64,000 nucleotides of DNA from Candidatus Doudnabacteria bacterium (GTDB taxonomy: Bacteria; Patescibacteriota; Doudnabacteria; UBA920). The stretch lies in NCBI GenBank assembly GCA_963837465.1, contig CAWINB010000004.1:586853-650852 (forward strand), in the 5' to 3' direction. Shown piece after piece: positions 13,142 through 32,841 of this stretch; within the stretch, counting starts at the first letter, position 1, and each line of letters begins with the position of its first letter. A program made the translations under genes and the position numbers. Under the pieces are notes generated by a model, which did not search any database, had not been told where the DNA came from, and saw nothing but the letters and a program-made list of their open reading frames with translations.

Positions 13142-13245
13142 CGTGAAGCACGAAGACGGTCATCCGTCTTGCTTAATGCTTCACGGTGTTGCCAAGGGAA
13201 ACTTTGGTAGGCTCGCAAGAGCCGGGCAAGCGGGTGGCCCTTTTT
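13142..13245 (+). other. candidate structured RNA / multi-hairpin element upstream of bPH gene
   Basis: nested hairpin CGTGAAGCA[CGAAGACGG-tcat-CCGTCTTG]cttaaTGCTTCACG, then GGCTC-GCAA-GAGCC GNRA-loop hairpin and GGGC..GCCC + T5. Confidence 0.3.
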
Positions 13246-13273
13246 GTAGCCCGTAGAAAGGAACAACTAAGCA

Positions 13274-13735: not shown

Positions 13736-13780
13736 AGATGGCAGACTGGTGTCTACCATCGGCAGAAAGGAAAAAATTAT

Positions 13781-14521
13781 ATGAACGGTTTATTTATGTT
13801 TTTGTTCCTGCTTTCAATCGTTGGACTGATAGTGGGACTGATAAAACCGGCATTATTTAACAAATTGTTTAAAGGAAATGCGAACAGAAAAAATACAAGT
13901 GTAGCTTTTGGAGCCGCCATAGTTTTATTTTTTATATTGACCGGCGTTACAAGTCCAAAAAGTAATACGGCCAGCCAACAAGCAAATATTCAACCCCAGC
14001 AACAGACCTCCGCGGTAACTCAAAATGCGGCTATTCCTACAAGCAGCCCGGCTGCTGCGATAGCAATACCTCCAACAGCCCCACCAAAGACAATCAAAGC
14101 TGCTCCAAACATTCCTGCCAACCCTCAACCAAAACAGCCAGCAGCTACCACACCTGCGCCTGTTGCAACTCCGCAACCAACGCAAGCTCCACAAACAGAC
14201 AATCAAAATACTTCACCAACCTCAAATGAAACAGTTAGTCAACAAAATGCTGTTGCAAAAGCAAAAGATTATTTAAATTACACGGCATTTTCTCATGATG
14301 GATTGGTTGCTCAATTGGAGTACGACCAATTTTCACCGGCTGATGCGACCTATGGTGCAGATAATTCCGGTGCTAACTGGGATGCGGAGGCAGCTGCAAA
14401 GGCCAAAGACTACATGAGCTATTCAGCTTTTTCACGCGGTGGTCTTATCGCACAGTTGGAATATGATAAATTCACACAAGAACAAGCAGAGTACGGAGCT
14501 AACGCGGTTGGACTACAATAG
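13781..14521 (+). CDS. membrane-anchored protein with Pro/Thr/Gln-rich linker and two tandem Ltp-like (phage superinfection-exclusion lipoprotein family) domains
   Basis: repeats KAKDYLNYTAFSHDGLVAQLEYDQFSPADATYGA and KAKDYMSYSAFSRGGLIAQLEYDKFTQEQAEYGA. Confidence 0.6.
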   Translation: MNGLFMFLFLLSIVGLIVGLIKPALFNKLFKGNANRKNTSVAFGAAIVLFFILTGVTSPKSNTASQQANIQPQQQTSAVTQNAAIPTSSPAAAIAIPPTAPPKTIKAAPNIPANPQPKQPAATTPAPVATPQPTQAPQTDNQNTSPTSNETVSQQNAVAKAKDYLNYTAFSHDGLVAQLEYDQFSPADATYGADNSGANWDAEAAAKAKDYMSYSAFSRGGLIAQLEYDKFTQEQAEYGANAVGLQ

Positions 14522-14554
14522 GACAAATAAAAACGCTATTGATAATAAAATAAG

Positions 14555-15076
14555 TTGGTTATTATAATGGCAAATATTTTCAATAAGGAATTATCAAGCA
14601 GAGACCGCCGCTGGAAGTCACAACTTGAATGTTTAGGCGCAAGTCCAACAGATTTTGAAAGGACACGTCTTATGCTTACAAAAAGGTTTGGGCAAAAACC
14701 AAACTTTGATGATATTATCTGGTCAATTTTCAACGAATTAATAATTAAAACAAATGGTACCGGTGTGTTATTTTATTGGATGGCTTTATTTCAGGATGAA
14801 AAGGGAAGAAATTCGGCTCATCTACTTTACGATAGCCAGCGGTCTTGGTTGAAAATTTGGTTTAAAACGGGAGTGATAACTGTAAAAATTTGCACGGCTG
14901 GAGAAAAAGCCTGCAAAAACTGCCAAAAATTGGAAGGTATAATTACTCCCATAGACCAAGCCTTTCAAAATCCCATTATACCCTGTAAAGATTGTATTTT
15001 TCGTATGAATCCAAAAAGTCGGTTTGCCTTTTGCCGTTGTATGTACCGGCCGGAAGATGTGGGCAAGATAGGATAG
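14555..15076 (+). CDS. hypothetical protein with Cys-rich C-terminus (CKNC...CKDC...CRC)
   Basis: ORF; possible ATG at 14567; putative zinc-ribbon-like Cys pairs. Confidence 0.5.
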   Translation: MVIIMANIFNKELSSRDRRWKSQLECLGASPTDFERTRLMLTKRFGQKPNFDDIIWSIFNELIIKTNGTGVLFYWMALFQDEKGRNSAHLLYDSQRSWLKIWFKTGVITVKICTAGEKACKNCQKLEGIITPIDQAFQNPIIPCKDCIFRMNPKSRFAFCRCMYRPEDVGKIG

Positions 15077-15146
15077 TTACTACCGTGGTTAGCATATTTA
15101 AAATTATTTTTACGGGGTAAGGCATACAATTTATCAACCTTGCAAA

Positions 15147-15173
15147 ATAAACGCGCCTCAATCGCGTTTTTTT
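15147..15173 (+). terminator. rho-independent terminator
   Basis: AAACGCG-cctcaat-CGCGTTT followed by T7. Confidence 0.6.
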
Positions 15174-15283
15174 GATGTCAAGCCATAGAGTAAACCGGAC
15201 TAACGCATTAGAAACGGCGGTCGAGTTGCATTTTTTCAGGAAGGGCATTATAACATTGTAAATCCAGTATTAAGTTAAAGCGT

Positions 15284-15508
15284 ATGCGTTTTGCCAGCAA
15301 AGAGCAAAAATTACAATGGTTAAAAGCGGCAGCGGAAAAAATCCGCCATATGGAAGCCGAGCCTAACGCGGCGATAATGGCGCAAGAGTTTGGACGAGCA
15401 TATAGTTTATTGCGCGGGCTGAATTATGCCAAAGTTCAGTTTCGCAAAGTCAGCCACGGCCTCCGTAAAAGTTGCACCGTAAAAGTTGCAGTTGACCGTA
15501 GGTTATAA
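15284..15508 (+). CDS. small hypothetical protein (74 aa)
   Basis: ORF only. Confidence 0.3.
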   Translation: MRFASKEQKLQWLKAAAEKIRHMEAEPNAAIMAQEFGRAYSLLRGLNYAKVQFRKVSHGLRKSCTVKVAVDRRL

Positions 15509-15634
15509 AGGGCATATAATATGTAAGGATAACGGCTGGCACAGCAGACGTTATTAGACAGCTCTCCATATTCTGTGCGAGAGTTTTTTTGTTTTAAACT
15601 TTCAACTTGAAACTTTATAACTTTTAACTCATAT

Positions 15635-15709
15635 GGTGCCTGTAGCTCAATGGTAGAGCACCGCTCTGTGGCAGCGGCTACGAGGGTCCGATTCCCTTCA
15701 GGCACCCCA
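15635..15709 (+). tRNA. tRNA-His (anticodon GUG) with genomically encoded G-1 and 3' CCA
   Basis: cloverleaf folded by hand: G-1, acceptor GTGCCTG/CAGGCAC, D-stem GCTC/GAGC, anticodon stem CCGCT/AGCGG with loop CTGTGGC, T-arm, discriminator C + CCA. Confidence 0.9.
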
Positions 15710-15864
15710 AGTTCTGAATTTAATATAATCAAATAGATTTCCTCGGAGCTCTGCTCCGGATGATACTTTGCGCAACTCTTGCGCGATTTTTAGACTTGGC
15801 AACTATAATATATTAGGATATAATCGTATATAGTTAGGTATATACGATTAAACTACTATCAATT

Positions 15865-16932
15865 ATGGAAAACAACAAGTTTAGTAAAAGAATACGCTAT
15901 GATCAAGAAATCGTTAATTTACTGTCAAAGGTCGGAGATTTTAAGGCTCAATGGCAGGGCGGTTTAAGGCTTAGCCCGCAGATTTTGGGCAGGATTAAGT
16001 CTTGGGTCATCATTACCAGCACAGGGGCTTCTACCCGTATAGAAGGATCAAAAATGAGCGATAAGGAAGTCGCCCGTCTTTTACGTGGTCTAAAGAATAA
16101 AAAGCCGCAAGGCAGGGATGCCCAAGAAGTTGCTGGCTATGCTGATTTGATTGGCAGGATTTTTGACAACTACAAAACCTTAAAGCTAACCGAAAATAAC
16201 ATTTTGCAATTCCATAGCATGCAGCTGCAATTTTCAGAAAAAGACGAATACCACAGAGGCAAATATAAGGCTACCGATAATACTGTAATTATGAAAACGC
16301 CAGAGGGTCAGACAGTAGTATTGTTTCAACCCTCGCCGCCATACCTCGTTAAGCCAGAAATGGAAAGCGTTATTGCTTGGACTAACGAACAGCTGGAAAA
16401 AGACGAAATCCACCCCTTACTCGTTATTGCGAATTTTGTGTTTGAATTTTTAGCAATACACCCGTTCTCTGATGGTAACGGGCGTCTTTCTCGTGCCTTA
16501 ACCAATTTACTGCTTTTAAGAGCTGGCTATACTTATGTCCCTTATGTTTCTATGGAAGAAATAATTGAGGAACGCCGGACGGATTATTATTTGGCTTTAA
16601 GGCGAACCCAAAAAAACCATAAAAGCGAACACGAAGATATTACTGCTTGGGTCAAATACTTCTTGGAAGTTTTAGGAGAGCAAGCCGATCGAGCACGGAA
16701 GTTAATGGAATTGGAACAGCCAGAAAAGCTTCTTTCAAAAAAACAAGCGCAAATATATAAGTTATTTACGCACGGTCAAGAATTAGCGATTAAAGAAATA
16801 GATAAAAAGCTAAAAGGCGCTATACCGCAAGTAACAATCAAGCAGGCTGTAAACCGTTTGGTTGAATTAAAATTAGTTGAACGTTTAGGTATGGGCAGAG
16901 GTATTAGATATAAGAAGCTGTATCTATTTTAG
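15865..16932 (+). CDS. Fic-family protein (class II), paralog of 10305-11366 in inverted orientation
   Basis: HPFSDGNGRLSR Fic motif; STRIEG inhibitory motif; ~50% aa identity to first Fic. Confidence 0.85.
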   Translation: MENNKFSKRIRYDQEIVNLLSKVGDFKAQWQGGLRLSPQILGRIKSWVIITSTGASTRIEGSKMSDKEVARLLRGLKNKKPQGRDAQEVAGYADLIGRIFDNYKTLKLTENNILQFHSMQLQFSEKDEYHRGKYKATDNTVIMKTPEGQTVVLFQPSPPYLVKPEMESVIAWTNEQLEKDEIHPLLVIANFVFEFLAIHPFSDGNGRLSRALTNLLLLRAGYTYVPYVSMEEIIEERRTDYYLALRRTQKNHKSEHEDITAWVKYFLEVLGEQADRARKLMELEQPEKLLSKKQAQIYKLFTHGQELAIKEIDKKLKGAIPQVTIKQAVNRLVELKLVERLGMGRGIRYKKLYLF

Positions 16933-19197: not shown

Positions 19198-19587
19198 TTA
19201 CTGCGGGGTAATGCTGTTTGAGGATGGCATCGCCGATGGGACTGACGGCGCCGTGGATGAGGCTGAGCCGCTTCTGGTTCCGCGCGTTTGGACGCGTATC
19301 ATGGGACTCCCGGGGTTATATCTCATGCGCATCCCCCCGCCGCGGCCGACAAAACCACCCGCGCCGTAAGGGTGACGCATGCTGCCCACTAAAATTCCCA
19401 GCCAAAAAACAATCAGCACGATTATAATTCCCAAAATTATCCTGAAAGCGTTATGGCCATAACCATAACCCCGCCCATGCCAGGATTTTGGCCCCTGGGA
19501 TTGGCCCGAGGGATTTTGGGAAGAGTTGTCTTGTGCTGATGGTTTGTTTACTGGATTGGTGTTTTGGATGTTTGAATTATCGTCCAT
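19198..19587 (-). CDS. small Gly-rich membrane protein
   Basis: Q/N/S-rich N-terminus, one TM helix, Gly/Arg-rich tail. Confidence 0.5.
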   Translation of the reverse strand: MDDNSNIQNTNPVNKPSAQDNSSQNPSGQSQGPKSWHGRGYGYGHNAFRIILGIIIVLIVFWLGILVGSMRHPYGAGGFVGRGGGMRMRYNPGSPMIRVQTRGTRSGSASSTAPSVPSAMPSSNSITPQ

Positions 19588-19713: not shown

Positions 19714-21342
19714 TTAGGCAAACCCCGGGAAAAAGTCGCTTTTAACATGGCTTTTTTTAATGCCCATTTGGCTTAAAACCGCCTCAAAATTATCCACCAT
19801 AGACTTGGGTCCGGAAACGTAAAATATCCTGTCCCGGTAGTCGGGGACTTTGTTTTGGATCATGGCGAGGTCAATGTACCCGATTTCCCCGGACCAGGAA
19901 TTTTGCCCGTCGTTTTTTGTCACGGTGTAAATAGTTTTAATGCCGAGTCGGTTTTCCGCTTCATCCAGAATTTCTTTATAAACCACGTCCTCGGGCGACC
20001 TGCTGGCGTAAAAAATTATGATATCGCGCTTTTCTTTGGCATCCATCAAGTATTTAAGCATGCTGCGGAAAGGCGTAATGCCGATGCCGCCGGCAATAAA
20101 GGCCAGTTTTTGGTTTTTGTTTTTGGGCAAAGTAAAATCTCCGGCTAATTGCCCGGCCATAATGGTTTGTCCCGGCAACATGGCCAGCAGGGATTTTTTA
20201 AAGCTGCTCGCCCCGTGGGAACCTGTTTTTTTTACGGGGCTCGCCCCGCGCGTTTTATTTGCCATTTCCGGCGGCCGATAAAACTTTACCCCCAAAATAA
20301 TTTCGCTTTCCGTCGGCGATGAAGCCAGGGTAAAATAGCGGCGGTTGCCCCGGTTGTCCGGGTTTTTGTGGCCCAAAGTCCATTCCAGATATTGGCCCGC
20401 GGAAAACCGGATTTTTTTATCGGCCTGAAAAATGAAATCGTAAATATCCGGGGATTTTTGGATTTTTTGTTTTAGGGTCAGCATCAGTTTTTGTTTGGGG
20501 CTGACTATGTAGGCAAAAATATTCCCAATACAGAGTGCCAGTTCAGGCGTGGAATAAATGCCGCCTATATGCAGCAGCGGAGAGAATAAAAAACCGGTCA
20601 GGACGCCGTAAGCTATTTGTAAATTGTTGGTGGGCGGGGTGGTTAGCGGCTCGGTCAGCATTATAAAACCCAAAAAAAACAGCGGCGTGTCCAGGAGCAA
20701 TTCTTTGGCAATAACCGTAACGCTGCTGCCGTTAAAAACCCCCAAAGTCAGGCAGGTTAAAGCCGCGGCCACAAAAAACCCAAACACCAAATCCCAGCGC
20801 TGGATTTTTCTTACGATTAAAAATCCGGTGATTAAGACCAGCGGCAGCATAGAGGCCGTGCCGACCCACCAACTTGCCGATTGCCCCAAAGCGAAGGAAG
20901 TAATAACTACGGCAATGGCCGCCGGGTTAAAAATATGTTTTTTCCCTATGGCTAAAACAAACTTGGACGCCATGGCCAAAATTCCGGCCGTGAGTAAAAA
21001 CAAATAGTCATTCCCGGTTTTGGCCGGGGTAATTATGAGGGCCAAAATCAGGGCGGTAATGTAAACCGATTCCAGGTTGGCGTGGGTTCTAAACACCGCG
21101 CAAAACAGCCGGTTGCCCAGCCAGCAGACAGCGGTTAAAAACAGAGCGGAAAAAATTATGGGGAAAAAACCGTAAGATAAAATGCCAAACAGGCTTAAAG
21201 TAGCCGCGCCGGCCAAAAGTACAATCAGAGAATACAGCACCAGGCGGTACATGGTAATCCTGTTTAGGAAGTTGTCTATGGGTTTTAGCATGGAGTGTTT
21301 ATGGAGGATATTAAGATATTGATAGGTATAACCGCGGAGCAA
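19714..21342 (-). CDS. polytopic membrane protein (~8 TM) fused to C-terminal FNR-like FAD/NAD(P)-binding oxidoreductase domain
   Basis: RRYFTLASSP (RxYS FAD motif) and LAFIAGGIGITPF (NAD(P) binding) in C-terminal third; true start possibly internal Met. Confidence 0.7.
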   Translation of the reverse strand: MLRGYTYQYLNILHKHSMLKPIDNFLNRITMYRLVLYSLIVLLAGAATLSLFGILSYGFFPIIFSALFLTAVCWLGNRLFCAVFRTHANLESVYITALILALIITPAKTGNDYLFLLTAGILAMASKFVLAIGKKHIFNPAAIAVVITSFALGQSASWWVGTASMLPLVLITGFLIVRKIQRWDLVFGFFVAAALTCLTLGVFNGSSVTVIAKELLLDTPLFFLGFIMLTEPLTTPPTNNLQIAYGVLTGFLFSPLLHIGGIYSTPELALCIGNIFAYIVSPKQKLMLTLKQKIQKSPDIYDFIFQADKKIRFSAGQYLEWTLGHKNPDNRGNRRYFTLASSPTESEIILGVKFYRPPEMANKTRGASPVKKTGSHGASSFKKSLLAMLPGQTIMAGQLAGDFTLPKNKNQKLAFIAGGIGITPFRSMLKYLMDAKEKRDIIIFYASRSPEDVVYKEILDEAENRLGIKTIYTVTKNDGQNSWSGEIGYIDLAMIQNKVPDYRDRIFYVSGPKSMVDNFEAVLSQMGIKKSHVKSDFFPGFA

Positions 21343-21347
21343 TATCC

Positions 21348-22094
21348 TTAATATCCTGCGGTATATTTTTCAAACCCGCTCGTCATAGTCGCGACGCCGT
21401 CTTTGTCCACGACATATCCCTCCAGTCCGTCCAGTTGCTCTATAAAAGTAATGCCGTCTTTGCCCATGGCAAAGGCGGCGGTGGCAAAGCGATCGGCTTC
21501 ATAGACATTGGGACCGAGCACGGTTATGCTGACAATCTCAATAATGAGGGAGTCGCTGAAAGGATTGTAGATATGCTGGTCGCGCTCGTAGGTTCCGGAG
21601 GTGGCAAGCCCGGCATTGTTCAGCTCCACTACTTTTATTATTTCTTTGGGCTTAAAAGGATTGCGAATGCCCGCGCGCCAGGATTGGCCGTCTTTATTTT
21701 GGCCGTAAGCCTGGATATCGCCGCCGGCCTCGACGTAAAAATTTTTAAAACCGGTTTGCTTAAGCAAACCGGAAGCCTGATAAACCGCCCAACCTTTAAC
21801 CAGGCCCGACGGGTCAATTTTTCCTTTATGGGAAATATCAAAATAACCCCGGCTCTGGTTTTTTGTCTGTTCAGCCAGGCTGAAAATTTCTTTCATCCCG
21901 GGGCTGTAGTCGGTGGGGTTTATTTCCCGGCGGTTGATTTTTGAAATTTCGCTTTGGGGCTTAAAAGGGCTGAATTTCCCGTCAACCCTTATAAAGTAAT
22001 CAAAAATTTTTTCTATATCAGTTTCACGAACATTACCGTCCATAACTTCAATGGTAATAGGCATGCCCATAATATCTGTTCTGGTCTTTTTCAT
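21348..22094 (-). CDS. apbE: FAD:protein FMN transferase (ApbE family)
   Basis: ApbE-family conserved blocks (AGGDIQAYG, ATSGTYER). Confidence 0.85.
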   Translation of the reverse strand: MKKTRTDIMGMPITIEVMDGNVRETDIEKIFDYFIRVDGKFSPFKPQSEISKINRREINPTDYSPGMKEIFSLAEQTKNQSRGYFDISHKGKIDPSGLVKGWAVYQASGLLKQTGFKNFYVEAGGDIQAYGQNKDGQSWRAGIRNPFKPKEIIKVVELNNAGLATSGTYERDQHIYNPFSDSLIIEIVSITVLGPNVYEADRFATAAFAMGKDGITFIEQLDGLEGYVVDKDGVATMTSGFEKYTAGY

Positions 22095-22166
22095 ATAGTT
22101 AAGATATTCGGGGCAAGACGCCGAAATTCTGAAATCGCGGCAGAAATGGATCTCTTCAGGCAGCCT

Positions 22167-22670
22167 CTAAGACGCCGCCTGGTTCAATGCCGACTGCAAA
22201 GATTGCGTAAATGCCTGGCTGTCCTGGGTAGCTCCGGAGACAACATCCACTTGAGCGCTTTGGGCGGCTATGGCCTCGCTTTTAAGCTGGGGCAGCGCCG
22301 TGCTGCTGACTTGGACGGAGTGCTGCGGAGCGTTGGGATACTGTAAAAACTGGATGTCCGTAAGTTTACCGCCGGAAATAACCGCCTCAACCTGGATGTT
22401 GCCGTAAACAGCATCGGCCACCGCGCCTGTGTAGCTGCCGTCTTTAAATTTTCCGGATGCTGTGGCGGGAGCGGACGGAGTTGGGGAAGTTATGGTCGTT
22501 GTGGCTGTACCGGGAGTTGAAGTTAATGGCGGGGTTGAGTTTGGAGTTTGGGTGGACGCGGTTTGCGTAGTCGTGGACAAGCTTGGAGCTTTTTGGCTTT
22601 CAGCGTGCTGGTAAAAAACATAAGCGGCAAAAATGACAACTACACCTACGGATAACAGAATTTTTTTCAT
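22167..22670 (-). CDS. secreted FMN-binding domain protein with SGAT flavinylation motif
   Basis: signal peptide, Thr/Ser/Pro-rich linker, FMN_bind domain with DVVSGATQDS (ApbE target Thr). Confidence 0.75.
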   Translation of the reverse strand: MKKILLSVGVVVIFAAYVFYQHAESQKAPSLSTTTQTASTQTPNSTPPLTSTPGTATTTITSPTPSAPATASGKFKDGSYTGAVADAVYGNIQVEAVISGGKLTDIQFLQYPNAPQHSVQVSSTALPQLKSEAIAAQSAQVDVVSGATQDSQAFTQSLQSALNQAAS

Positions 22671-22836
22671 TAGGATTAAATTTGATTAATAATTTTTTTA
22701 GTCTTTTTATTATACTATAGTACGTTATTTTTTAAAAGTCAGGCTCAAAGCCCATAAAACGAGGATTACCCTCGCTTTATATAAAAAAGTGTTATAATAA
22801 ACAAAAGGTTAAATCGGACTTAATAATATAAAATAA

Positions 22837-23874
22837 GTGGAAAATCAAAATTTTAAACCTGATGGAGCGGGAAAAAAAAGTAAAATTTTACTTTTTGCGC
22901 TCTTGGCTTTTGATATTCTGCTTTTGGTAACCTGTATTTTGCAAATAGTCTGGCCGCGCGTCAGTTTTAATAACAGCAGTTTTTTAAATCCTAAGGGTTT
23001 AATAGCTCAGCAGGAACGCGCGCTCATAGTAAAGGCCGTTTTAATAATGCTCATTGGCACAATTCCGGTTTACATTCTGATTTTTTTCTTTGCCTGGAAA
23101 TACAGGGCCGACAGGACGGAAACAAAATATTCTCCGGATTTGGAGGGTAAGGCATTGGGCGGAATCGCGCTTTGGGCGCTTCCCGCTTTAATTATTTTAG
23201 CGCTCTCGGTCATAAACTGGAAAAGCACCCACTTGCTGGATCCCTCTAACACAATCGCTTCCGGCGTGCCGCCCATAACCATAGAGGTTGTCGCTTTGCA
23301 ATGGAAATTTTTATTTATTTATCCGAAACAAAATATCGCTACCGTAAATTTTATTGAATTCCCTCAGGGTACGCCCCTGAATTTTGAGCTAACCGCGGAC
23401 GCGCCGATGAGCTCATTTTGGATTCCGCAGCTCGGCAGCCAAATTTACGCCATGGCCGGAATGCAAACACATCTAAACCTTATTGCCGACCAGCCGGGAG
23501 ATTTTAAAGGTATGGATACGGAAATAAACGGGACGGGCTTTTCGGGCATGAAATTTATTGCCAGGTCAACTTCGCGGGCGGACTTTGACCAATGGGTGGC
23601 ATCGGTAAAACAATCCGGCGCCAAGCTTAATCTGGATGATTACAATCAACTGGCCGAACCCAGCCAGAACAACCCCCAGGCTTACTATTCGTCCGTCGAT
23701 CCCGGTCTGTATGATACAATTATGATGAAAAATATGATGCCCATGACCCAGGCGCGAATGGAGCAGATGAGCAGTTTGGGATTGGGTGCCGCGAATTCTT
23801 CCGCAACGACTATGCCGGGAATGAATATGGGCAGTTCGTCGCCAATGAACATGCAGGGGATGGACATGAAGTAG
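22837..23874 (+). CDS. cyoA: cytochrome bo3-type quinol oxidase subunit II (no CuA ligands) with Met-rich C-terminal tail
   Basis: COX2 fold blocks WKFLFIYP, FWIPQLG; CuA Cys/His replaced (FSGMKF); tail with multiple MxM/MxxM. Confidence 0.8.
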   Translation: MENQNFKPDGAGKKSKILLFALLAFDILLLVTCILQIVWPRVSFNNSSFLNPKGLIAQQERALIVKAVLIMLIGTIPVYILIFFFAWKYRADRTETKYSPDLEGKALGGIALWALPALIILALSVINWKSTHLLDPSNTIASGVPPITIEVVALQWKFLFIYPKQNIATVNFIEFPQGTPLNFELTADAPMSSFWIPQLGSQIYAMAGMQTHLNLIADQPGDFKGMDTEINGTGFSGMKFIARSTSRADFDQWVASVKQSGAKLNLDDYNQLAEPSQNNPQAYYSSVDPGLYDTIMMKNMMPMTQARMEQMSSLGLGAANSSATTMPGMNMGSSSPMNMQGMDMK

Positions 23875-23912
23875 AACCTATTTTTCAAATAGGTTCTAAG
23901 TAGTCCATCTTA

Positions 23913-25979
23913 TTGGCTGGAAAAACTATGGAACATTTTCTTTTAGGAAAACTTACCTGGGACGCGCTGCCGCACGAGTGGTTTACCATTGGCGGGACGG
24001 TTGCCATTGGCATTGGCGGCTTGTTTGTCGCGATTCTGTTAACCTGTCTTAAACGCTGGAAATGGCTATGGAAGGAATGGCTTACGTCCACCGATCCCAA
24101 AAAAATCGGGGTCATGTACATTGTTGTGGCCTCGCTGATGCTGTTTCGCGGCGCGGTTGACGCGGGAATGATATGGCTGCAACAGTCGCTTTCCGTTGGA
24201 ACATCGCAAGGATATTTAAACGCCGACCACTTCCAGCAAATTTTTACCGCGCACGGCTCCATTATGATTCTTTTTGTGACCATGGGTTTTTTGTTCGGCC
24301 TGATGAACTATATTATCCCCCTGCAAATTGGCGCGCGCGATGTTGCCTTTCCGCTTCTAAATACTTTGAGTTTCTGGCTGTATGTCGCCGGGGCCGTGCT
24401 GATTAACCTGTTTTTTGTGGTTGGCGGACAATTCGCCGCCGCCGGCTGGCTGTCCATGCCGCCGCTGTCGGAACTGGCCTACAGCCCGGGCGTGGGCGTG
24501 GATTATTGGATATGGAGTTTGCAAATCTCCGGCCTGGGCAGTTTGCTGTCCGGAATTAATTTTCTTGTAACCATCGTAAAAATGCGCGCTCCCGGAATGA
24601 CGCTGATGAAAATGCCCATGTTCGCCTGGACTACTCTTTGCAGCATGATTCTGGTTATTTCCGCTTTCCCTATTCTTACCATGACCCTTATCCTGCTTTC
24701 CCTGGACCGGACTTTGGGCATGCATTTTTTTACTTCCAGTTTTGGCGGCAATCCCATGATGTACGTCAATTTAATTTGGTCGTGGGGACATCCGGAAGTT
24801 TATATACTCATGATTCCGGCCTTTGGTATTTATTCGGAGGTCGTAACTACCTTCAGCAGGAAAAAATTGTTCGGCCACACCGCGGCTGTGGCAGCGACTA
24901 TTGGCATTACGCTTATGTCTATGCTGGTCTGGCTGCACCATTTTTTTACCATGGGCGCGGGAGCCGATGTAAACGCTTTCTTCGGCATCATGACCATGAT
25001 TATCGCCATTCCCACGGGCGTGCTGGTCTACAATTGGCTGGCGACTATGTTTAGGGGACGGATTACTTTTGCCACACCTATGTACTGGTTTATGGGTTTT
25101 GTCTGTACTTTTACCATGGGCGGCATGGCCGGCGTGCTGATGGGTATACCCGGGGCGGATTACCTGCTGCACAATACTTTATTTTTAGTGGCGCATTTTC
25201 ATACCATGGTCATCGGGGGCGCCCTGTTCGGGATTTTTGCCGGCATTACCTACTGGTGGCCCAAGGTCACGGGGTTTCGGCTGAACGAACGGATTGGCAA
25301 ATATGCTTTTTGGCTTTGGATAGTCGGATTTTTTACCTCGTTTTTACCGCTCTATATTCTGGGTTTTATGGGAGCTACCAGGCGCATGGACCATTACGAC
25401 CCTTCCACCGGCTTTCAACCTCTGTTTATAATCGCGGGATGCGGTTTTGTAATTATTTGCTGCGCCGCCGCCGCGCAAATCTGGCAGATTATAGTTAGCG
25501 TTATGGAACGCAAAGCAACCGTTGATACTACCGGCGACCCGTGGGATGGACGCACGCTTGAGTGGGCAACGTCATCCCCGCCGCCGATTTACAATTTCGC
25601 CATTATACCTACAGTAACTACGCGGGATGCTTTTTGGGAAGCCAAACAATCAAGTGTCATTGCGAGCGCGGCCGAAGCAATCTTTCCATCGACGGGAAAG
25701 ATTGCTTCGTCGCCAGGTAAAGCCCTGGCTCCTCGCAATGACACTCGGCTGGTCTATGAAGACATCATGATGCCAAAAAATACGGCCATGGGGATATACA
25801 TATCCGGTTTCGTTTTCCTGATGGGTTTCGCCCTGGTCTGGCATATTTGGTGGCTGTTGGTTGTGGGATTAATCGGCGCGGTTGTTTGCGTTATAGTTCG
25901 CGCGTTTGAGGAAGAAACGGAATACGTAATCCCGGCGGCGGAAGTGGAGAGGATGGAAAAAGATAGTAAAAGAAAATAG
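23913..25979 (+). CDS. cyoB: heme-copper quinol oxidase subunit I
   Basis: 12+ TM helices, WGHPEVYILMIPAFG and WAHHMF-type (HHFFTMG) signatures. Confidence 0.9.
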   Translation: MAGKTMEHFLLGKLTWDALPHEWFTIGGTVAIGIGGLFVAILLTCLKRWKWLWKEWLTSTDPKKIGVMYIVVASLMLFRGAVDAGMIWLQQSLSVGTSQGYLNADHFQQIFTAHGSIMILFVTMGFLFGLMNYIIPLQIGARDVAFPLLNTLSFWLYVAGAVLINLFFVVGGQFAAAGWLSMPPLSELAYSPGVGVDYWIWSLQISGLGSLLSGINFLVTIVKMRAPGMTLMKMPMFAWTTLCSMILVISAFPILTMTLILLSLDRTLGMHFFTSSFGGNPMMYVNLIWSWGHPEVYILMIPAFGIYSEVVTTFSRKKLFGHTAAVAATIGITLMSMLVWLHHFFTMGAGADVNAFFGIMTMIIAIPTGVLVYNWLATMFRGRITFATPMYWFMGFVCTFTMGGMAGVLMGIPGADYLLHNTLFLVAHFHTMVIGGALFGIFAGITYWWPKVTGFRLNERIGKYAFWLWIVGFFTSFLPLYILGFMGATRRMDHYDPSTGFQPLFIIAGCGFVIICCAAAAQIWQIIVSVMERKATVDTTGDPWDGRTLEWATSSPPPIYNFAIIPTVTTRDAFWEAKQSSVIASAAEAIFPSTGKIASSPGKALAPRNDTRLVYEDIMMPKNTAMGIYISGFVFLMGFALVWHIWWLLVVGLIGAVVCVIVRAFEEETEYVIPAAEVERMEKDSKRK

Positions 25980-26035
25980 GTTCTAATAGGATCGGCGCTC
26001 ATAGGAATATCCTAATATCCAATATTATAAACCAA

Positions 26036-26635
26036 ATGGCAATTGATACAAATCAACAAACGATAAATAATTCTGCGCATCATGTCGACAAAACCATCTT
26101 CGGGTTTTGGGTCTACTTGATGACGGATTTGATAATGTTCGCCGCGTTGTTTGCCTGCTACGCGGTGCTGCGGACAAATACCTTTGGCGGTCCGGGTGCC
26201 GGACAACTTTTAAGTTTAGACGGCGCGCTGGCGGAAACTTTGATATTGCTCGCCAGCAGTTTTACCTGTGGCTTGGCAATGCTGGCGGTTCATAAAGGCG
26301 ACAAAAAACAGGCGCTGGTTTGGTTTGGGGTAACAGTGCTTTTGGGGCTTTTGTTTTTGACCCTGGAATTGCGCGAATTTTCCGGACTTATAGCCGGCGG
26401 CAACAGCTTTACCAGCAATGCCTTCCTGTCATCCTTTTTCGCGCTTGTGGGCACGCACGGGCTGCACATATCCATTGGCTTATTATGGATGCTGGTTTCC
26501 ATGGTTATGGTTTGGCGCCGCGGCCTTACGCCGGCCATTATAAGCAAGCTTACGCGCTTAAGTTTATTCTGGCATTTTTTGGATATTGTCTGGATTTTTA
26601 TTTTTACCATTGTATATTTATATGGGCACATTTAA
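26036..26635 (+). CDS. cyoC: quinol oxidase subunit III
   Basis: 5-TM subunit III pattern, C-terminal HFLDIVWIFIFT. Confidence 0.8.
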   Translation: MAIDTNQQTINNSAHHVDKTIFGFWVYLMTDLIMFAALFACYAVLRTNTFGGPGAGQLLSLDGALAETLILLASSFTCGLAMLAVHKGDKKQALVWFGVTVLLGLLFLTLELREFSGLIAGGNSFTSNAFLSSFFALVGTHGLHISIGLLWMLVSMVMVWRRGLTPAIISKLTRLSLFWHFLDIVWIFIFTIVYLYGHI

Positions 26636-26954
26636 ATTATATTTAACAGGATTTGCGGCATCCATCATACTCACTCTGGCGGCATATTTCGCCGTGGCCG
26701 CGCATATTTTAAGCGGTTCGATGCTGATTGCCGCTATTATGGCGCTTGCGATTATTCAGCTCATCGTCCAGTTGATATTTTTCCTGCATTTGGGCAAAGG
26801 ACAGGATTCAACCTGGAATTTGGTGGTGTTTTTTTCCACAGTCACGCTTGTGTTAATAATTGTCGTAGGCTCCCTCTGGATTATGAACCACTTAAACTAC
26901 AATATGACCCCCCAGGACATCAATAATTATATGAGCAGCCAGGACGGGATATAA
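26622..26954 (+). CDS. cyoD: quinol oxidase subunit IV
   Basis: 3-TM small subunit immediately after cyoC; ATG at 26622. Confidence 0.6.
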   Translation: MGTFKLYLTGFAASIILTLAAYFAVAAHILSGSMLIAAIMALAIIQLIVQLIFFLHLGKGQDSTWNLVVFFSTVTLVLIIVVGSLWIMNHLNYNMTPQDINNYMSSQDGI

Positions 26955-27041
26955 AAGAATTGCGGGATATTCAGATATTGCGGATATTGCCGACAGCATA
27001 ATATCCTAATATCTAAAGTATTTATTAATGTCTGGTAACGT

Positions 27042-27923
27042 ATGTTTAGACTTTACTACCACCTAACCAAACCCGGAATAATTTACGGCAATGCCATAAC
27101 TGCCATTGCCGGGTTTTTTTTGGCTTTAAATTCAAATGAATATTTAGTGTCAAGGGTGACCCTTGACACTAAACTTTTTTTTGCGATGCTGGTTGGGCTG
27201 TCTTTTATAATCGGTTCTTCCTGTGTTTTTAACAATGTCTGGGACGGGGATATTGACGCAAAAATGGAGCGGACAAAAAAACGGGCAATGGTTACCGGAG
27301 AGATCGGCAAAATATCGGCGATTATTTTTGCGAGCATATTGGGTTTGCTTGGCGCGTTCATCTTAGGCCTGCTCACTAACCCCTTAACTCTAATCGTCGC
27401 CCTGCTGGGCATGTTTTTTTATTTGATTTTATACACTCCGCTGAAGCGCAAAACCGCATACGGTACTTTAATCGGCGCGATCGCGGGAGCTACGCCGCCC
27501 GTTGTTGGATACGTTGCCGTCACCAATAATTTTGATACCGCGGCATTGCTGCTGTTTTTTATTTTGGTGTTTTGGCAAATGCCGCATTTTTACGCCATTG
27601 CCATCCGCCGGCTGGATGAGTATAAAGCCGCTTCAATTCCGGTACTGCCGGTTAAGGAGGGTATACATAATACAAAAATAAAAATGCTCGCGTACATTGC
27701 CGCGTTTATTTTAGCCACCGCGGGGTTAACTTATTTTAAATATACAAGCTATATGTATTTAGTTGTTATGATTTTACTCGGGCTATATTGGTTGTGGATT
27801 GGAGTTAGTGGTTTTAAAAAAACATCCGATGATAACAAATGGGCCAGCAAAATGTTTTTGTCGTCGCTTATAATCCTGACCTTGTTTTCGGTTGTCGTTT
27901 CATTTGGAACTCGTTTGCCATAA
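27042..27923 (+). CDS. cyoE: protoheme IX farnesyltransferase (heme O synthase) carrying in-frame palindromic-repeat insertion
   Basis: UbiA-family motifs NNVWDGDIDAKMERT and second Asp-rich region; 9 TM. Confidence 0.85.
   Translation: MFRLYYHLTKPGIIYGNAITAIAGFFLALNSNEYLVSRVTLDTKLFFAMLVGLSFIIGSSCVFNNVWDGDIDAKMERTKKRAMVTGEIGKISAIIFASILGLLGAFILGLLTNPLTLIVALLGMFFYLILYTPLKRKTAYGTLIGAIAGATPPVVGYVAVTNNFDTAALLLFFILVFWQMPHFYAIAIRRLDEYKAASIPVLPVKEGIHNTKIKMLAYIAAFILATAGLTYFKYTSYMYLVVMILLGLYWLWIGVSGFKKTSDDNKWASKMFLSSLIILTLFSVVVSFGTRLP
27145..27171. repeat. palindromic repeat element copy C, inserted in-frame inside cyoE/ctaB
   Basis: TAGTGTCAAGGGTGACCCTTGACACTA translated in gene frame as LVSRVTLDTK, an extra segment in the heme O synthase. 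Confidence 0.85.
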
Positions 27924-28407: not shown

Positions 28408-29916
28408 TTATTCCACATGCACATGCACGTTATCGCTGCCTTTTTGCACGTTAATCCAAAATGAGGTGATGACGCCAACAAATACCAGGACGGCGGCGGT
28501 CACAAAAACGTAAGCGTAAGCGGAAACCTGGGCTTTTAAGATGATCAGGGCGATGAATTTTTGGTAATCCGAAGGGTTGGTGCTGTTTAAAATGCTGTGG
28601 GCGTTTATTTTTAACACGTAACTGTTGGTGGCGTTGGTTAAGATAGTGCTGAAAATCGCAATGCCAAAAGCGCCGGCCACGTTCCTGACCAAGGCTAAAA
28701 TAGAAGAAGCCACGCCGATTTCCTGGGTCGGCACCACCGCGGCAATAACGTTAGTTCTCTGGGCCATGCCAAAGCCCAGGCCAAAAGACATAATAGTCAG
28801 CGGTATCATAATATCCAAAGCCGTGGAACGGGGATCCAAACCACGCAGTAAAAAAATACCCAGAGCCGCCACAAAAGTACTGGCCGCTATTACGTATTTG
28901 GGTTTAACTTTTCCGGTCAGCGCCCCGCCAATTGGCGCGGCGGCCATAAGCCCTACCGCAAGAGGGATAAACAAGTAGCCGCTTTGGGTGGCGGAGTCGC
29001 CCAAAAAAGTCTGGGCAAAAATCGGGATTAGAAATATGGCGCCGTAAAGGCCCATAAAAACGATAAAATTGTTGAGCAGGGTGTTAACGAAGGCGCTGAT
29101 CTTAAAAAACTTTAAGTCCACAATCGGCTCCGGTACCAGCTTTTCTATCCACAAAAATATCCAGGTAAATGCCACTATCGCGGCGTAACAAACCCAGGCC
29201 TGCCAGGAACTCCAGCCCCAGGCGGGCCCCTGGTCCAGTATCAAAACCAAAGCGGAAAGCGCCGCGCCCAAAGTAATGGCACCCCACCAGTCAAAAAATT
29301 TGGTCTTTTTTTCGGATACGGATTCCTTAACGAAAGTTAAAGCCATAAACAAACCGAGCAGGCCAATGGGCAAATTAACCAAAAAAACCGAGCGCCAGCC
29401 GAAGTTGTCTATAAGCGGGCCGCCAATAAGCGGGCCAAACACGGCCGCGGCCGCGAACGAAGAAGACCAAATCCCCAAAGCCTGGGCGCGTTCTTTTTCG
29501 CCCTTAAAAGTTACGGCCAAAATAGCCATGGCAGTGGGGTAATCGGCTGAACCGGCAATGGCCTGGATAACCCTAAATGATATCATGGAGCTTAAATTCC
29601 AGCTAAGTCCGGCCAGTACCGAGCCGAAAATAAAAATGGAAAAACCCAAGATGTAGACTTTTTTGCGGCCGATGGTATCGCCCAGCTTGCCCCAAATCGG
29701 CACGAAAATGGCATTGGCCAGAATGTAAGCCGTGGCAATCCAGCCGGCGGCGGAGACGGAAATATTAAAGTCGGTGATAATTTTCGGCAGCGCCAAATTT
29801 ACAATGGTCTGGTCCAGCCGGCCAAGAAAAGTCCCGACGATAACCGTCAGGAGTATCCACCATTTGAGACTGGAAGATTCTTTTGCGGGTTCGGTTAGGG
29901 TCGTTGTGGTAGCCAT
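28408..29916 (-). CDS. MFS drug:H+ antiporter, 14-TM DHA2 (EmrB/QacA-like)
   Basis: MFS signature GKLGDTIGRKK, 14 predicted helices. Confidence 0.85.
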   Translation of the reverse strand: MATTTTLTEPAKESSSLKWWILLTVIVGTFLGRLDQTIVNLALPKIITDFNISVSAAGWIATAYILANAIFVPIWGKLGDTIGRKKVYILGFSIFIFGSVLAGLSWNLSSMISFRVIQAIAGSADYPTAMAILAVTFKGEKERAQALGIWSSSFAAAAVFGPLIGGPLIDNFGWRSVFLVNLPIGLLGLFMALTFVKESVSEKKTKFFDWWGAITLGAALSALVLILDQGPAWGWSSWQAWVCYAAIVAFTWIFLWIEKLVPEPIVDLKFFKISAFVNTLLNNFIVFMGLYGAIFLIPIFAQTFLGDSATQSGYLFIPLAVGLMAAAPIGGALTGKVKPKYVIAASTFVAALGIFLLRGLDPRSTALDIMIPLTIMSFGLGFGMAQRTNVIAAVVPTQEIGVASSILALVRNVAGAFGIAIFSTILTNATNSYVLKINAHSILNSTNPSDYQKFIALIILKAQVSAYAYVFVTAAVLVFVGVITSFWINVQKGSDNVHVHVE

Positions 29917-30004
29917 AGATTTTGAGATAATCGGAGAAATCAGAGAATCAGAAAAATCGGAAGCTCAGATTCTCTGATTTCTCCGATTTTTCTGGAGTTC
30001 CAGT

Positions 30005-30703
30005 TTACTTCGTGAATATTGTCAGTTTCGCCGACATTCCGTTCTTAAGCTCCGGATACTCCGATGTATTAAAGCGCACTTTAACGTTAAACTGCTGTTC
30101 CTCGCGCTGATCGGAAATATTAAACACAACATCACTTTGGTTGGATGTCGGATCCACTTCGTCCACCACGCCGGAATATTTTTTGCCGCCGAAAGCGTCC
30201 ACGGTAAAACCGGCCAATTGGCCGACGGCTATCCTGTCCAGACCCTTGTTTTCGTCCAGAGTGCCCACCACCCTTAGCTGGCTCGGGTCTATCATGCTGA
30301 CTACCGCGTCGCCGGGATTAAAAGTTTTGCCTATCTCGTTGTCTACGGTTATAATTTCACCCGCGACCTGGGTTTTAATAATTTCCGTGCCGACTTCGGC
30401 TACGGGCGTGTTGGCGGCCACCGTATCGCCTTCGTTGACGTAAAGCGCCTGCAGCTGTCCGGGTGTGCTGGGGGACAGGTCAATAATCGGGGCGGAAATA
30501 AGCGACGTGTCTATGCCTACGCGGCTGCCTGACATTTGCCAGTAAACAAAACCGCCGGCAAGAACCAAAACCAGAACGGCCCAGCTTAAAGATTTAATCC
30601 AGGGGTTCCGCAAAATACCGCGTTCGGCTTTTTCGACTTTGTCTTCGGTCCCGCCGATGGCTTTTAAAATTTGGTCTTCGTTGTTTTTATCGTTGTTATC
30701 CAT
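30005..30703 (-). CDS. HlyD-family membrane-fusion/adaptor protein (EmrA-like, short)
   Basis: N-terminal TM anchor, biotinyl/lipoyl-like hairpin and beta-barrel blocks. Confidence 0.65.
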   Translation of the reverse strand: MDNNDKNNEDQILKAIGGTEDKVEKAERGILRNPWIKSLSWAVLVLVLAGGFVYWQMSGSRVGIDTSLISAPIIDLSPSTPGQLQALYVNEGDTVAANTPVAEVGTEIIKTQVAGEIITVDNEIGKTFNPGDAVVSMIDPSQLRVVGTLDENKGLDRIAVGQLAGFTVDAFGGKKYSGVVDEVDPTSNQSDVVFNISDQREEQQFNVKVRFNTSEYPELKNGMSAKLTIFTK

Positions 30704-30731
30704 ATATTAAATAGTGTTAGATTGTTCAAAT

Positions 30732-32295
30732 TTAACTTCCAAAAGTCGCGACCTCCTGGCCCTGGTTCAGCCCGCCGGTTATTTGCACATTGCCGTCAAT
30801 CCCGGAAATGCCGATTTGAACCGGCGTGAGCCGGGTTTTGCCGTTGTTCTGGGTAATGACGTAATTTTGATTATTCTGCTGGATAACCGAGCTGGCAGGG
30901 ACAACTAAAGCGTTTTGGAGTGTTTGGTCGGTAATGCTGATGCTCGGCATCCATACCTTCTTTAATTCTGGCGTCGTTTTGGTTAAATTGCAGGGTGGTT
31001 TTGTAAGTATTTATCCCGTTCTGCACGGTGGAGGATGGGTCTATCGCGATAACGGTGGCGGGAAAAACCACGCCGCTGCCATAAGCTGTTAAAGTTACAG
31101 TGGCGCTGTCGCCGACTTTAATTTTTCCCACATTGGTTTCCGAAACGTAGGACTGGATTTGGAATTGCGAGCTGGAAATCATTTTGATGGCATCGGGACC
31201 AGGAGCCAAAGTGCTGCCGGCTACCGTCTGTCCGACTTTGGTATCCACCGAAGTGATTACGCCGTCTATGGGGGCGGTTAAAACAGTTTGGCTGTAAGTG
31301 TTTTGCGCGGATTGGACTTCGGCTTTGGCTTCATCAACCGCGGCCTGGGCCGAGGCTATATCTTCGGGTTGGGCCGGAGCCTGCTTTAGCTGCAGGGCTG
31401 CCTGGGCTTGGGTTAACGCGGACTGCGCGCTGTCAACCGCAGTCTGTGCCGTAGTTAGGGCCTGGTTTTGGGTTTGCAGCGCCGCGTTGTAGGCGTTTTG
31501 GTTGGCAACATAGCTGGCCGCGGCCGTGTTGGGAATGTTTACGGTCCAGCTATCACCCGAGTAAAGCTGTCCGGAAGGGAACTGGATCGTTAATCCCTGG
31601 GTGCCAAGAGGTACCGGCCCAATATTGCTGGCTGTTCCCTGGAAATTTTCCAGCCCGCTGGCCGTAAATTGTATGCCGCTGCCGGTATTGTAAAGTTTGA
31701 TTAAATATTGCCCCTGCTGGGTGCCGGTATAGCTGCCGCCGATAGCGGGGTTCTGGCTGGAAAGATTATTGGATGAGGGTGTGGCGGCCAGGCCGGAATT
31801 AAGCAAAGCGGTCAGGGCGTTTTGCACGGCCTGTTTTTGCTGGCTTATGACAGCCTGCTGGTTTAGCTGGGCGTTAGCCAGGGCGCTTTGAGCGGCTGTT
31901 ACGGCAGTTTGCGAGACGTTAATATCCGCGGAAGTGTCGCCGCTTACAACTTTCTGGTAATTGGCCTGGGCCTGGCTAAGTCCTGCCTCGGCCTGGCTTA
32001 AGGCCGCGGCTACGTCGCCGGAATCAAGTTTAACCAAAGCCTGTCCCTGCTTGACGGTTTGGTCGGCGACAACGTCAACTTCCGAGACTGTGCCGCCTTG
32101 TTGAAAGGCCAGAGACAAGTCCTGGGCGGCCACTACTGTGCCGCTAACGTTTACTCCCTGGGTAATGGAGGAGTTTTGGGCATTGGTAAAGTTAAGCTGG
32201 GGGCGTTTGGTTAAAGACCAGCTTATGTAGCCGGCGGCGGCTAAAATCACGATTATGGCAATTACTGTTACTGTTATAGGCTTGCTTGTTTTCAT
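30732..32295 (-). pseudogene. HlyD/MacA-like periplasmic adaptor with long coiled-coil, split by a frameshift near 30940
   Basis: ORF 30871-32295 ends ...ARIKEGMDA then frame switches; ORF 30732-30950 encodes the conserved C-terminal barrel/MP domain (SISITDQTLQNALVVPASSV...). Confidence 0.6.
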
Positions 32296-32400
32296 AGAAT
32301 CTGGTTTGCGTTTAATTGTTGTTCCTGCTCGTCATGATTGTAAAATTATTTACGGTTTCTTGATAGCGTATGTTTCCGTTTTGGAAACGTCCGGATAAAA

Positions 32401-32841
32401 TTAAGGCGTGCCGGCCATCTTTTTTAGAATTTTTAAAAAATCCAGCTGCTCCCTGACGCTTAGATTGTCCAACAAATGCTTAAAAATTCCGCAGCGCTGC
32501 TTAATGCCTTTTTGCAGTACGCCGTCGCCTTTTTTGGTCAGCTGTAAATGAACGGTGCGGCGGTCCGAACTGCTCGATTTTCTGGTGATAAATCCGGCCA
32601 CGACCAAATTATTAATCAATACGGTAGCCGAAGGAGGGGTGATGGCCAGAAAATCCGCTACTTCCTTCATGGTGGACTGTTTCTTTTCCTCAATAAAGCG
32701 GAGCGTTTCCACGTGGGCCATTGGAAGGTTGTAGAGGGGATTGTTTAAGTCCGTTTTTTGTTTTAGGGCCCGAAAAGCGCTAAAAAACAGCGAAGCTATT
32801 TCGTCAGTTTTGTTATTTTTCATCGGAAAAATATTAGACAT
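32401..32841 (-). CDS. MarR-family transcriptional regulator
   Basis: winged-HTH block TPPSATVLINNLVVAGFITRKSSSSDRRTVHLQLTKKG. Confidence 0.8.
   Translation of the reverse strand: MSNIFPMKNNKTDEIASLFFSAFRALKQKTDLNNPLYNLPMAHVETLRFIEEKKQSTMKEVADFLAITPPSATVLINNLVVAGFITRKSSSSDRRTVHLQLTKKGDGVLQKGIKQRCGIFKHLLDNLSVREQLDFLKILKKMAGTP

Follow-up and report, generated by a model that had tools for sequence, protein, structure and literature searches.

A predicted NQR/RNF-like flavinylation module beside a cyo quinol oxidase operon in a Candidatus Doudnabacteria genome

NQR/RNF-like systems have been defined as flavinylation gene clusters that encode a fusion of PF03116 and PF00175 domains, and the defining paper gives a first list of 127 such clusters (Méheust et al. 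2021, eLife, PMC8238504). In a later study, the two-subunit complex of Ktedonobacter racemifer was modelled, the flavinylation site of NqrB/RnfD was found to be lost, and the flavin mononucleotide (FMN) of the NqrC-like subunit was suggested to sample the vacated pocket (Huang et al. 2024, PMC10979944). A fusion of NqrF-like and NqrB-like parts has also been described from a soil Saccharibacterium, where it was speculated to be part of an electron transport chain (Starr et al. 2018, PMC6031116). Here we analyze a locus of three genes in a 64,000-nt stretch of contig CAWINB010000004.1 from a Candidatus Doudnabacteria bacterium; this whole stretch is referred to as the window, and all coordinates are window positions (Table 1). 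The genes encode an FMN-binding (FMN_bind) subunit, an ApbE-type FMN transferase and a membrane protein fused to a ferredoxin-NADP reductase (FNR)-type domain for flavin adenine dinucleotide (FAD) and reduced nicotinamide adenine dinucleotide (phosphate), NAD(P)H.

Judged by its sequence and predicted fold, the module is a member of the NQR/RNF-like class already described, and its architecture is not new. PF03116 and PF00175 occur in one protein, an assignment backed by a PDB profile search and by the fold, and the ApbE and FMN_bind genes lie directly upstream of the fusion gene on the same strand. The FMN_bind subunit bears the ApbE recognition motif of the class, Dxx(S/T)GA(T/S), and the flavinylated Thr of NqrB/RnfD is absent from the membrane domain, as has been noted for the class (PMC10979944). 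The module thus has the same architecture, the same Thr loss and the same taxonomic range as the published system (the candidate phyla radiation, CPR, and Chloroflexota, including relatives of Ktedonobacter), from which it differs in adjoining an inserted cyo operon and in carrying a 22-aa insertion in its FAD domain. From these comparisons, we consider it probable that the module relays electrons from NAD(P)H to a covalently bound FMN outside the cell, and that its adjacency to cyo reflects an insertion specific to this lineage.

Domain architecture of the module

The first-pass annotation of this DNA had called three co-directional genes, and the corresponding minus-strand open reading frames (ORFs) are present at 19714-22670 in the order FMN_bind, ApbE, fusion protein. 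By its layout this is one operon, predicted to encode a two-subunit membrane complex together with its maturation enzyme; across related loci, the intergenic gaps between FMN_bind and ApbE and between ApbE and the fusion gene have medians of 4 and 8 nt, which fits a single operon. The gene order is kept in 73-74 of 80 related loci from Patescibacteria and Chloroflexota, the exceptions being mostly short contigs, and FMN_bind homologs stand immediately upstream of ApbE in 74 of the 80. The fusion protein has ~8,000 scored relatives at 90% clustering, the named ones mostly from Patescibacteria or Chloroflexota, and relatives are encoded in at least 587 of 599 candidate stretches from species-representative genomes. 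For the membrane domain, 393 clusters at 50% identity were recovered with E <= 1e-30, most of their members being 480-515 aa long. These counts suggest a much larger family than the 127 clusters of the first list.

Homologs of the fusion protein are ~505 aa long and begin at the equivalent of M18, so that the likely start is the ATG at 21291 (525 aa) and not the TTG at 21342, which the deposited public annotation uses. The first-pass annotation had described a protein of 542 aa with ~8 transmembrane (TM) helices, an FNR domain and the motifs RxYS and GGIGITPF. The FNR fusion and the GGIGITPF motif stand; the length is revised to a likely 525 aa, the number of helices to ~10 and the FAD motif to a variant R-Y-F-T. 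Its view that the protein is not a standard Nqr/Rnf subunit did not survive the profile and structure searches of the large protein, which identify a known NqrB/RnfD-NqrF-like variant: the membrane half is an NqrB/RnfD homolog by Pfam, PDB profile and predicted fold, and the soluble half is closest to NqrF.

For the membrane half, PF03116 (NQR2_RnfD_RnfE) matches residues 160-279 with 33 bits against a cut-off of 27.7. A profile of this domain searched against the whole PDB retrieved four distinct sequences only, namely RnfD (8ahx_D, E = 4.8e-5) and three V. cholerae NqrB sequences comprising the wild type and point mutants (best 7xk3_B, E = 9.4e-4). An AlphaFold2 model of the membrane domain alone, made from full-length database homologs, reached a predicted local distance difference test score (pLDDT) of 86.5 and a predicted TM-score (pTM) of 0.84. 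All 15 significant Foldseek matches to this model were RnfD or NqrB chains, with TM-scores over the query (TMq) of up to 0.69, and the next matches were urea transporters at E > 0.25. The model of the full-length fusion protein (pLDDT 88.7, pTM 0.82) shows ~10 membrane helices.

The segment of NqrB that includes the loop with the flavinylated Thr (residues 183-272, T236) has shrunk to ~43 profile positions in the membrane domain and is largely deleted, and no SGAT-type motif ([ST]G[AS][ST]) occurs anywhere in the fusion protein. His residues are found in the membrane domain at positions 70, 119 and 241 only, H119 alone being invariant, and none of the four Cys residues of the fusion protein falls in an invariant column. 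Because Lys and Arg residues cluster in the predicted inner loops, and because the FNR domain must reach NAD(P)H, we infer that both termini of the membrane domain are cytoplasmic; the shortened loop between TM5 and TM6 and the FMN_bind domain would then lie outside.

The soluble half, which matches PF00175 (NAD_binding_1), carries the R-Y-F-T motif for FAD, GGIGITPF and a C-terminal FPGFA, all in columns that are invariant or nearly so. Its sequence matches NqrF (PDB 2r6h, E = 7e-16), and its model matches FNR-family structures in Foldseek, with the FAD/NADH domains of NqrF among the best (TM-scores over the target, TMt, of 0.75-0.78). The NqrF match covers the FAD/NAD region only, and the fusion protein contains no 2Fe-2S domain. 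The lineage-specific insertion in the FAD-binding domain is predicted to be disordered (pLDDT < 50, residues 343-359).

The 167-aa subunit consists of an N-terminal anchor (MKK followed by a hydrophobic stretch), a Ser/Thr/Pro-rich linker and the FMN_bind domain. It had been proposed to be a secreted FMN-binding protein with an ApbE motif. The PF04205 domain and the DVVSGAT motif bear this out in part; the protein appears to be membrane-anchored rather than secreted, with no evident cleavage site or lipobox. DVVSGAT occupies residues 142-148, ~20 residues before the C-terminus, and T148 is the predicted site of FMN attachment. All of the 75 FMN_bind homologs have the core motif [ST]G[AS][ST], and 72 of the 75 have the extended motif, with the residue to be modified at a median distance of 20 residues from the C-terminus. 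These homologs keep the anchor together with a positively charged N-terminus, which is MKK or a Lys/Arg-rich tail of up to 6 positive charges; such charges ahead of a hydrophobic segment predict an N-in/C-out orientation by the positive-inside rule.

The module resembles several better-known redox systems in part. With Na+-NQR it shares an NqrB-homologous membrane domain, an NqrC-homologous FMN_bind domain, an FAD/NAD(P)H domain closest to NqrF and the same ApbE motif, whereas its operon has no NqrA, NqrD or NqrE, an NqrF-type 2Fe-2S domain is missing, the Thr236 loop of NqrB is deleted, and the NqrB-like and NqrF-like parts form one polypeptide. A canonical Na+-NQR was rejected because the operon has three genes only, as against nqrABCDEF, and the missing ones are not among the recurrent neighbours of the module in the 80 loci. 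The likeness to Rnf lies in RnfD being the best profile and structural match (8ahx_D, TMq 0.69) and in the RnfG-like partner. Unlike Rnf, the module has no RnfA, RnfB, RnfC or RnfE genes in the operon and its immediate flanks and no Fe-S subunits, and its predicted donor is NAD(P)H via the FNR-type domain, in place of ferredoxin/NADH via RnfB/RnfC. Canonical Rnf was rejected for the same absences and for a TIGR01946 (rnfD) score of 19.9 bits against a cut-off of 207.

Listeria-type extracellular electron transfer (Ndh2, EetA/B, PplA, FmnB) likewise leads from cytoplasmic NADH to an ApbE-flavinylated extracytosolic protein in a cell without an outer membrane. Its membrane parts (NDH-2, demethylmenaquinone, EetA/B) are unrelated to those of the module, FmnB is an exported lipoprotein whereas the module ApbE has no export signal, and the match to PplA reaches only 18.8 bits against a cut-off of 325. 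In NOX/FRE/MsrQ proteins, a cytoplasmic FNR-type NAD(P)H domain is also fused to a membrane domain that passes electrons outward; in contrast, the membrane domain of the module does not belong to PF01794 and has no bis-His heme pairs, and its predicted carriers are flavins, not hemes. A NOX/FRE protein was rejected, with no PF01794 match and NAD_binding_6 at 18.1 bits, under the cut-off of 22.2, and the first-pass statement that the fusion is not of the NOX/FRE di-heme type is upheld by this result and by the single invariant His of the membrane domain. NDH-2 was also rejected: no match to the Pyr_redox family was obtained, and the protein instead combines an FNR-type fold with a polytopic NqrB-like domain.

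Directly downstream of the fusion gene, a Gly-rich ORF of 129 aa (19198-19587, minus strand) encodes one membrane helix with Gly/Arg-rich flanks. In 9 of 80 loci, the module is likewise followed by a small, Gly-rich membrane ORF, with marginal similarity to that of the window (best E = 2.8e-5). The ORF was considered as a further module component and is not supported as such, given one weak neighbour match (E = 2.8e-5) and none in the closest relatives.

Electron path and site of flavinylation

In the proposed mechanism, ApbE would attach FMN covalently to Thr148 of the FMN_bind subunit, and NAD(P)H would reduce the FAD of the cytoplasmic NqrF-like domain. Electrons would then cross the membrane via the NqrB-like domain, with a non-covalent flavin as the probable carrier, bound in the pocket that in NqrB is occupied by covalent FMN or riboflavin. 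On the outer face they would arrive at the covalent FMN of the FMN_bind subunit, from which they would go on to an external acceptor. The flow would be one-way, unlike the semicircular path of Nqr or Rnf. Such a relay from cytoplasmic NAD(P)H to the flavinylated protein had been put forward in the first-pass annotation; it agrees with the domain evidence and with the hypothesis published for the same architecture (PMC8238504, PMC10979944).

Several points weigh against this reading. No experimental or biochemical study of any member of the fusion family was found in the literature searched. The fusion protein has no 2Fe-2S domain, conserved Cys cluster or heme-type His pair that could supply a cofactor for the membrane step, which counts against the transmembrane part of the proposed path. 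Clustering of 788 neighbouring ORFs from the 80 loci gave no conserved fourth gene that would point to the terminal acceptor, the commonest neighbour families being ABC ATPases (21 loci), sensor kinases (17) and HlyD-like adaptors (14). The adjacency to cyo could have been co-opted functionally in this one lineage. Lastly, neither a signal peptide nor a lipobox or membrane helix is present in the module ApbE, in the window or in ~70 related loci, and ApbEs without a signal are known only as cytosolic enzymes that modify cytosolic targets (PMC12052999). A signal-less ApbE sits awkwardly with an FMN domain that is predicted to face outward.

The identification of this gene as an ApbE FMN transferase, already made in the first pass, is retained (PF02424, E = 5.9e-42). 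The enzyme is ~50 aa shorter than solved ApbEs, the difference lying in its N-terminal half: residues 92-236 align with residues 161-315 of the solved proteins, and the sequence begins where their mature domain begins. Its short N-terminus, MK.TR..MGMP, is conserved across related loci, and a signal is missing in Patescibacteria and Chloroflexota alike, a Ktedonobacteraceae genome (L076) among them. The available portions of PMC8238504 and PMC10979944 contain no mention of a signal-less ApbE in the NQR/RNF-like class. Two other explanations were ruled out. In the window, the FMN_bind and ApbE genes share one reading frame with a single TAG between them; stop-codon readthrough, which would fuse the two proteins and export ApbE, is contradicted by the finding that only 10 of 67 loci share the frame, below chance. 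A mis-called start that conceals a signal peptide is excluded as well, the upstream in-frame stop being the stop codon of FMN_bind itself and the gap in relatives having a median of only 4 nt. Where ApbE ORFs appear longer, the extra part is unrelated upstream sequence ahead of the conserved MK.TR..MGMP.

This leaves three possibilities: FMN is attached before export, the FMN domain faces inward, or ApbE is exported by an unconventional route. That the compact ApbE is cytosolic and places FMN on the C-terminal SGAT before the FMN_bind domain crosses the membrane, or else that this domain is not outside at all, is a possibility that we regard as doubtful but worth entertaining. The cytosolic ApbE of Klebsiella pneumoniae likewise has no N-terminal secretion or lipoprotein signal; its target is a soluble, cytosolic fumarate reductase, whereas that of the module is membrane-anchored and predicted to face outward.

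An inward-facing domain would make the module an all-cytoplasmic flavin chain with no extracytosolic step. In such a chain, FMN_bind would be oriented N-out/C-in and modified by a cytosolic ApbE, and it would shuttle electrons from the FNR domain to the cytoplasmic face of the NqrB-like domain or to a cytoplasmic or membrane acceptor. The lack of export features in ApbE at the window and ~70 other loci favours this arrangement, as does the precedent for signal-less ApbEs acting in the cytosol on cytosolic targets (PMC12052999). The FAD used by ApbE is moreover cytoplasmic, and the module has no linked flavin exporter. We still find such a chain very unlikely. The MKK or Lys/Arg-rich N-termini of FMN_bind predict the opposite, N-in/C-out orientation, Ser/Thr/Pro-rich linkers like the one found here are typical of extracellular stalks, and the homologous domains of NqrC and RnfG are periplasmic. 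In the published AlphaFold-multimer model, the domain is docked on the outer side, at the pocket that corresponds to the NqrB FMN site (PMC10979944).

For a relay that ends on an outward-facing FMN, ferric iron, free flavins and oxygen are candidate acceptors, as is quinone obtained from a host. Were the acceptor iron, the covalent FMN would reduce it from the ferric form outside the cell so that a divalent-metal transporter, such as the Nramp encoded nearby, could import it, and the module would act as an assimilatory reductase. This would be a special case of the relay to an outer FMN rather than an alternative mechanism, and it strikes us as distinctly improbable. VIT1 iron transporters are found in 6 of the 127 NQR/RNF-like clusters, and iron assimilation has been proposed for a subset of them (PMC8238504). 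An Nramp gene at 35909-37171, with a counterpart near the module in loci L083/L084, offers weak support. Against it, the gene is ~13 kb away from the module here and lies on the strand opposite to the module both in the window and in L083/L084, and no metal transporter is among the recurrent neighbour families of the 80 loci. The Nramp gene of L083/L084 is located at 40-1305, ~7 kb from the module.

The adjoining cyo operon

The first-pass annotation had pointed to a gap of 166 bp between the FMN_bind gene and a divergent cyoA, and both this distance and a complete cyoABCDE were confirmed. The FMN_bind/cyoA junction recurs in a second, independent assembly (L170), and promoter-like hexamers are found on both strands of the 166-bp region. 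In the closest relatives of the module (64-67% identity), the genes form one co-directional block in the order MarR, HlyD-like, HlyD-like, MFS, FMN_bind, ApbE, fusion protein. The window block is collinear with L081 and L083/L084 at 54-80% protein identity; in those loci FMN_bind directly follows the MFS gene, and in the window cyoABCDE lies between the two in opposite orientation. Since the closest relatives have the MFS-FMN_bind junction intact, cyo interrupts an ancestral junction. On this synteny, cyo is a lineage-specific insertion between the module and its ancestral upstream neighbours, not part of a conserved functional unit. The cyo operons of soil CPR have been reported to be laterally acquired (PMC8407418), and with the insertion and this report in mind, the 166-bp region is best read as an insertion scar rather than a conserved bidirectional promoter.

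Linkage was examined in both directions. Starting from the module, cyoA or cyoB was found within 10 kb in 0 of 80 loci. The reverse search used the 80 metagenomic loci closest to the CyoB of the window, of which 48 were informative (at least 1.5 kb of sequence upstream of cyoA), and found the module near cyo in one of them (L148). This is an independent case: on a contig of 59% GC, the module is co-directional and ~1.8 kb upstream of cyoA(B) (230-7859), from which it is separated by genes for a DoxX-like membrane protein and an EngB GTPase. Two further loci gave a 36%-identical fusion homolog (L115) and a 24%-identical ApbE-like match (L131), both far from cyoA. In three closer CyoB relatives, which have 78-82% identity and lie on long contigs, the module is absent, and the gene divergent from cyoA in such relatives encodes DsbB or is an unannotated ORF. 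A conserved linkage of module and cyo is rejected by these counts (0/80, 1/48 and 0/3), and together with the synteny they speak against the coupled respiratory or redox unit that the first-pass annotation had suggested.

Among the closest relatives with cyo, the position divergent from cyoA is taken by DsbB in L167 (7966-8523) and by DsbB with a DsbA-like CPHC thioredoxin beside it in L168 (8037-9089) and L169 (1199-2251). Dsb is a quinone-reducing disulfide-bond system, and different lineages thus place different extracytoplasmic redox modules beside cyo. On the far side of the inserted cyo segment, the ~480-bp gap between cyoE and the MFS gene holds an unannotated ORF of 91 aa with predicted membrane helices (28065-28340, plus strand).

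The same neighbourhood invites a second reading, in which the module would be a minimal form of NQR: electrons would pass from FAD to the FMN_bind flavin, then to a flavin of the NqrB-like domain and on to quinone, so feeding the adjacent, laterally acquired cyo. In Na+-NQR, the final flavins and the quinone site are located in NqrB. In the window, the 166-bp divergent region is common to the module and cyo, with the junction present in two assemblies, L148 also has the module ~1.8 kb upstream of cyoA, and the divergent position is held in close cyo relatives by DsbB and a DsbA-like protein, which are likewise quinone-reducing. Starr et al. speculated that the NqrF/NqrB fusion of a soil Saccharibacterium belongs to an electron transport chain (PMC6031116), and cyo-bearing soil CPR lack quinone biosynthesis and have an unclear electron input (PMC8407418). 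We nevertheless judge quinone reduction by the module to be unlikely. The linkage is not conserved in any of the three comparisons above, the closest relatives of the module have no cyo at the site where it was inserted in the window, and two unrelated genes intervene in L148. The family is widespread in Patescibacteria, which are reported to be without most of the electron transport chain (PMC8407418), so that its common function cannot depend on cyo. In the membrane domain, the Gly140-Gly141 region of NqrB aligns to residues other than Gly, and the part of NqrB before ~135 has no counterpart.

Features of the window and meaning for the family

Table 1. Coordinates of the module, its domains and its neighbours in the window
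Feature	Coordinates	Strand	Basis or remark
Cytoplasmic FNR-type FAD/NAD(P)H domain of the fusion protein	19714..20496	-	PF00175, E = 2.6e-20, residues 415-517
Lineage-specific insertion of ~22 aa (RPPEMANKTRGASPVKKTGSHGA) in the FAD-binding domain	20215..20265	-	absent from all aligned homologs
NqrB/RnfD-like membrane domain, residues 1-265 counted from ATG 21291	20497..21291	-	PF03116, profile, fold
Compact ApbE-type FAD:protein FMN transferase, 248 aa	21348..22094	-	PF02424, E = 5.9e-42
NqrC/RnfG-like FMN_bind subunit, 167 aa	22167..22670	-	PF04205, E = 3e-8
Codons of ApbE flavinylation motif D142-V-V-S-G-A-T148	22227..22247	-	direct reading and regular expression
Divergent intergenic region, AT-rich, 166 bp, FMN_bind gene to cyoA	22671..22836	.	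sequence
Best sigma-70-like promoter match upstream of FMN_bind gene, TTTAAA-16 nt-TATAAT, 10/12 positions	22709..22736	-	consensus match only, which does not show function
cyoABCDE quinol oxidase operon	22837..27923	+	neighbour, not part of the module
cyoA	22837-23874	+	
cyoB	23913-25979	+	
cyoC	26036-26635	+	
cyoD	within 26586-26954	+	
cyoE	27042-27923	+	
MarR-HlyD-HlyD-MFS block	28408..32841	-	Pfam; directly upstream of the module in closest relatives
MFS	28408-29916	-	
HlyD-like	30005-30703	-	
HlyD-like	30871-32295	-	
MarR	32401-32841	-	

Beyond the MarR-efflux block, the window encodes an MgtE_N/CBS protein and the Nramp transporter (34666-37171, plus strand). On the other side of the module, the region 10305-16932 is possibly mobile or variable. 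It contains two Fic-domain paralogs, one at 10305-11366 (minus strand) that is 89% identical to a Fic protein of L081 and one at 15865-16932 (plus strand) that is 44% identical, an ORF at 11550-12836 whose match to the rve integrase core stays below threshold (24.4 bits; cut-off 32.6), and a tRNA gene at 15636-15706. The LOOT RNA family of Rfam (RF03000) has a full-length match at 13097-13223 (plus strand), with 67 bits where the gathering score is 46.4; closely downstream of it follow an ORF of 153 aa (13274-13735) and a gene for an Ltp-type lipoprotein (13781-14521). Farther along, the window encodes a DUF11 repeat protein (48520-50364, plus strand), a LysM-CHAP peptidoglycan hydrolase (50921-52261, minus strand) and a TrbL/VirB6-domain protein of 1100 aa (60228-63530, plus strand); such cell-surface and type-IV-secretion-like genes are common in episymbiotic CPR bacteria.

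That ApbE consistently has no export signal raises a concrete question about the site of flavinylation. If the FMN_bind domain is flavinylated before export, or faces inward, this would contradict the view that exported proteins receive their flavin outside the cell, and a cytosolic ApbE would explain how FAD is supplied in very small genomes without a linked flavin exporter. If the module were instead to reduce quinone, it would be an electron-input enzyme for aerobic respiration in a CPR bacterium; the genome of the window and L148, in which the module lies near a laterally acquired quinol oxidase, provide a natural test case for this activity. For the family as a whole, the module may be among the few membrane redox devices kept by the reduced genomes of Patescibacteria and Chloroflexota, and the nature of its acceptor would then matter for their NAD(P)H balance.

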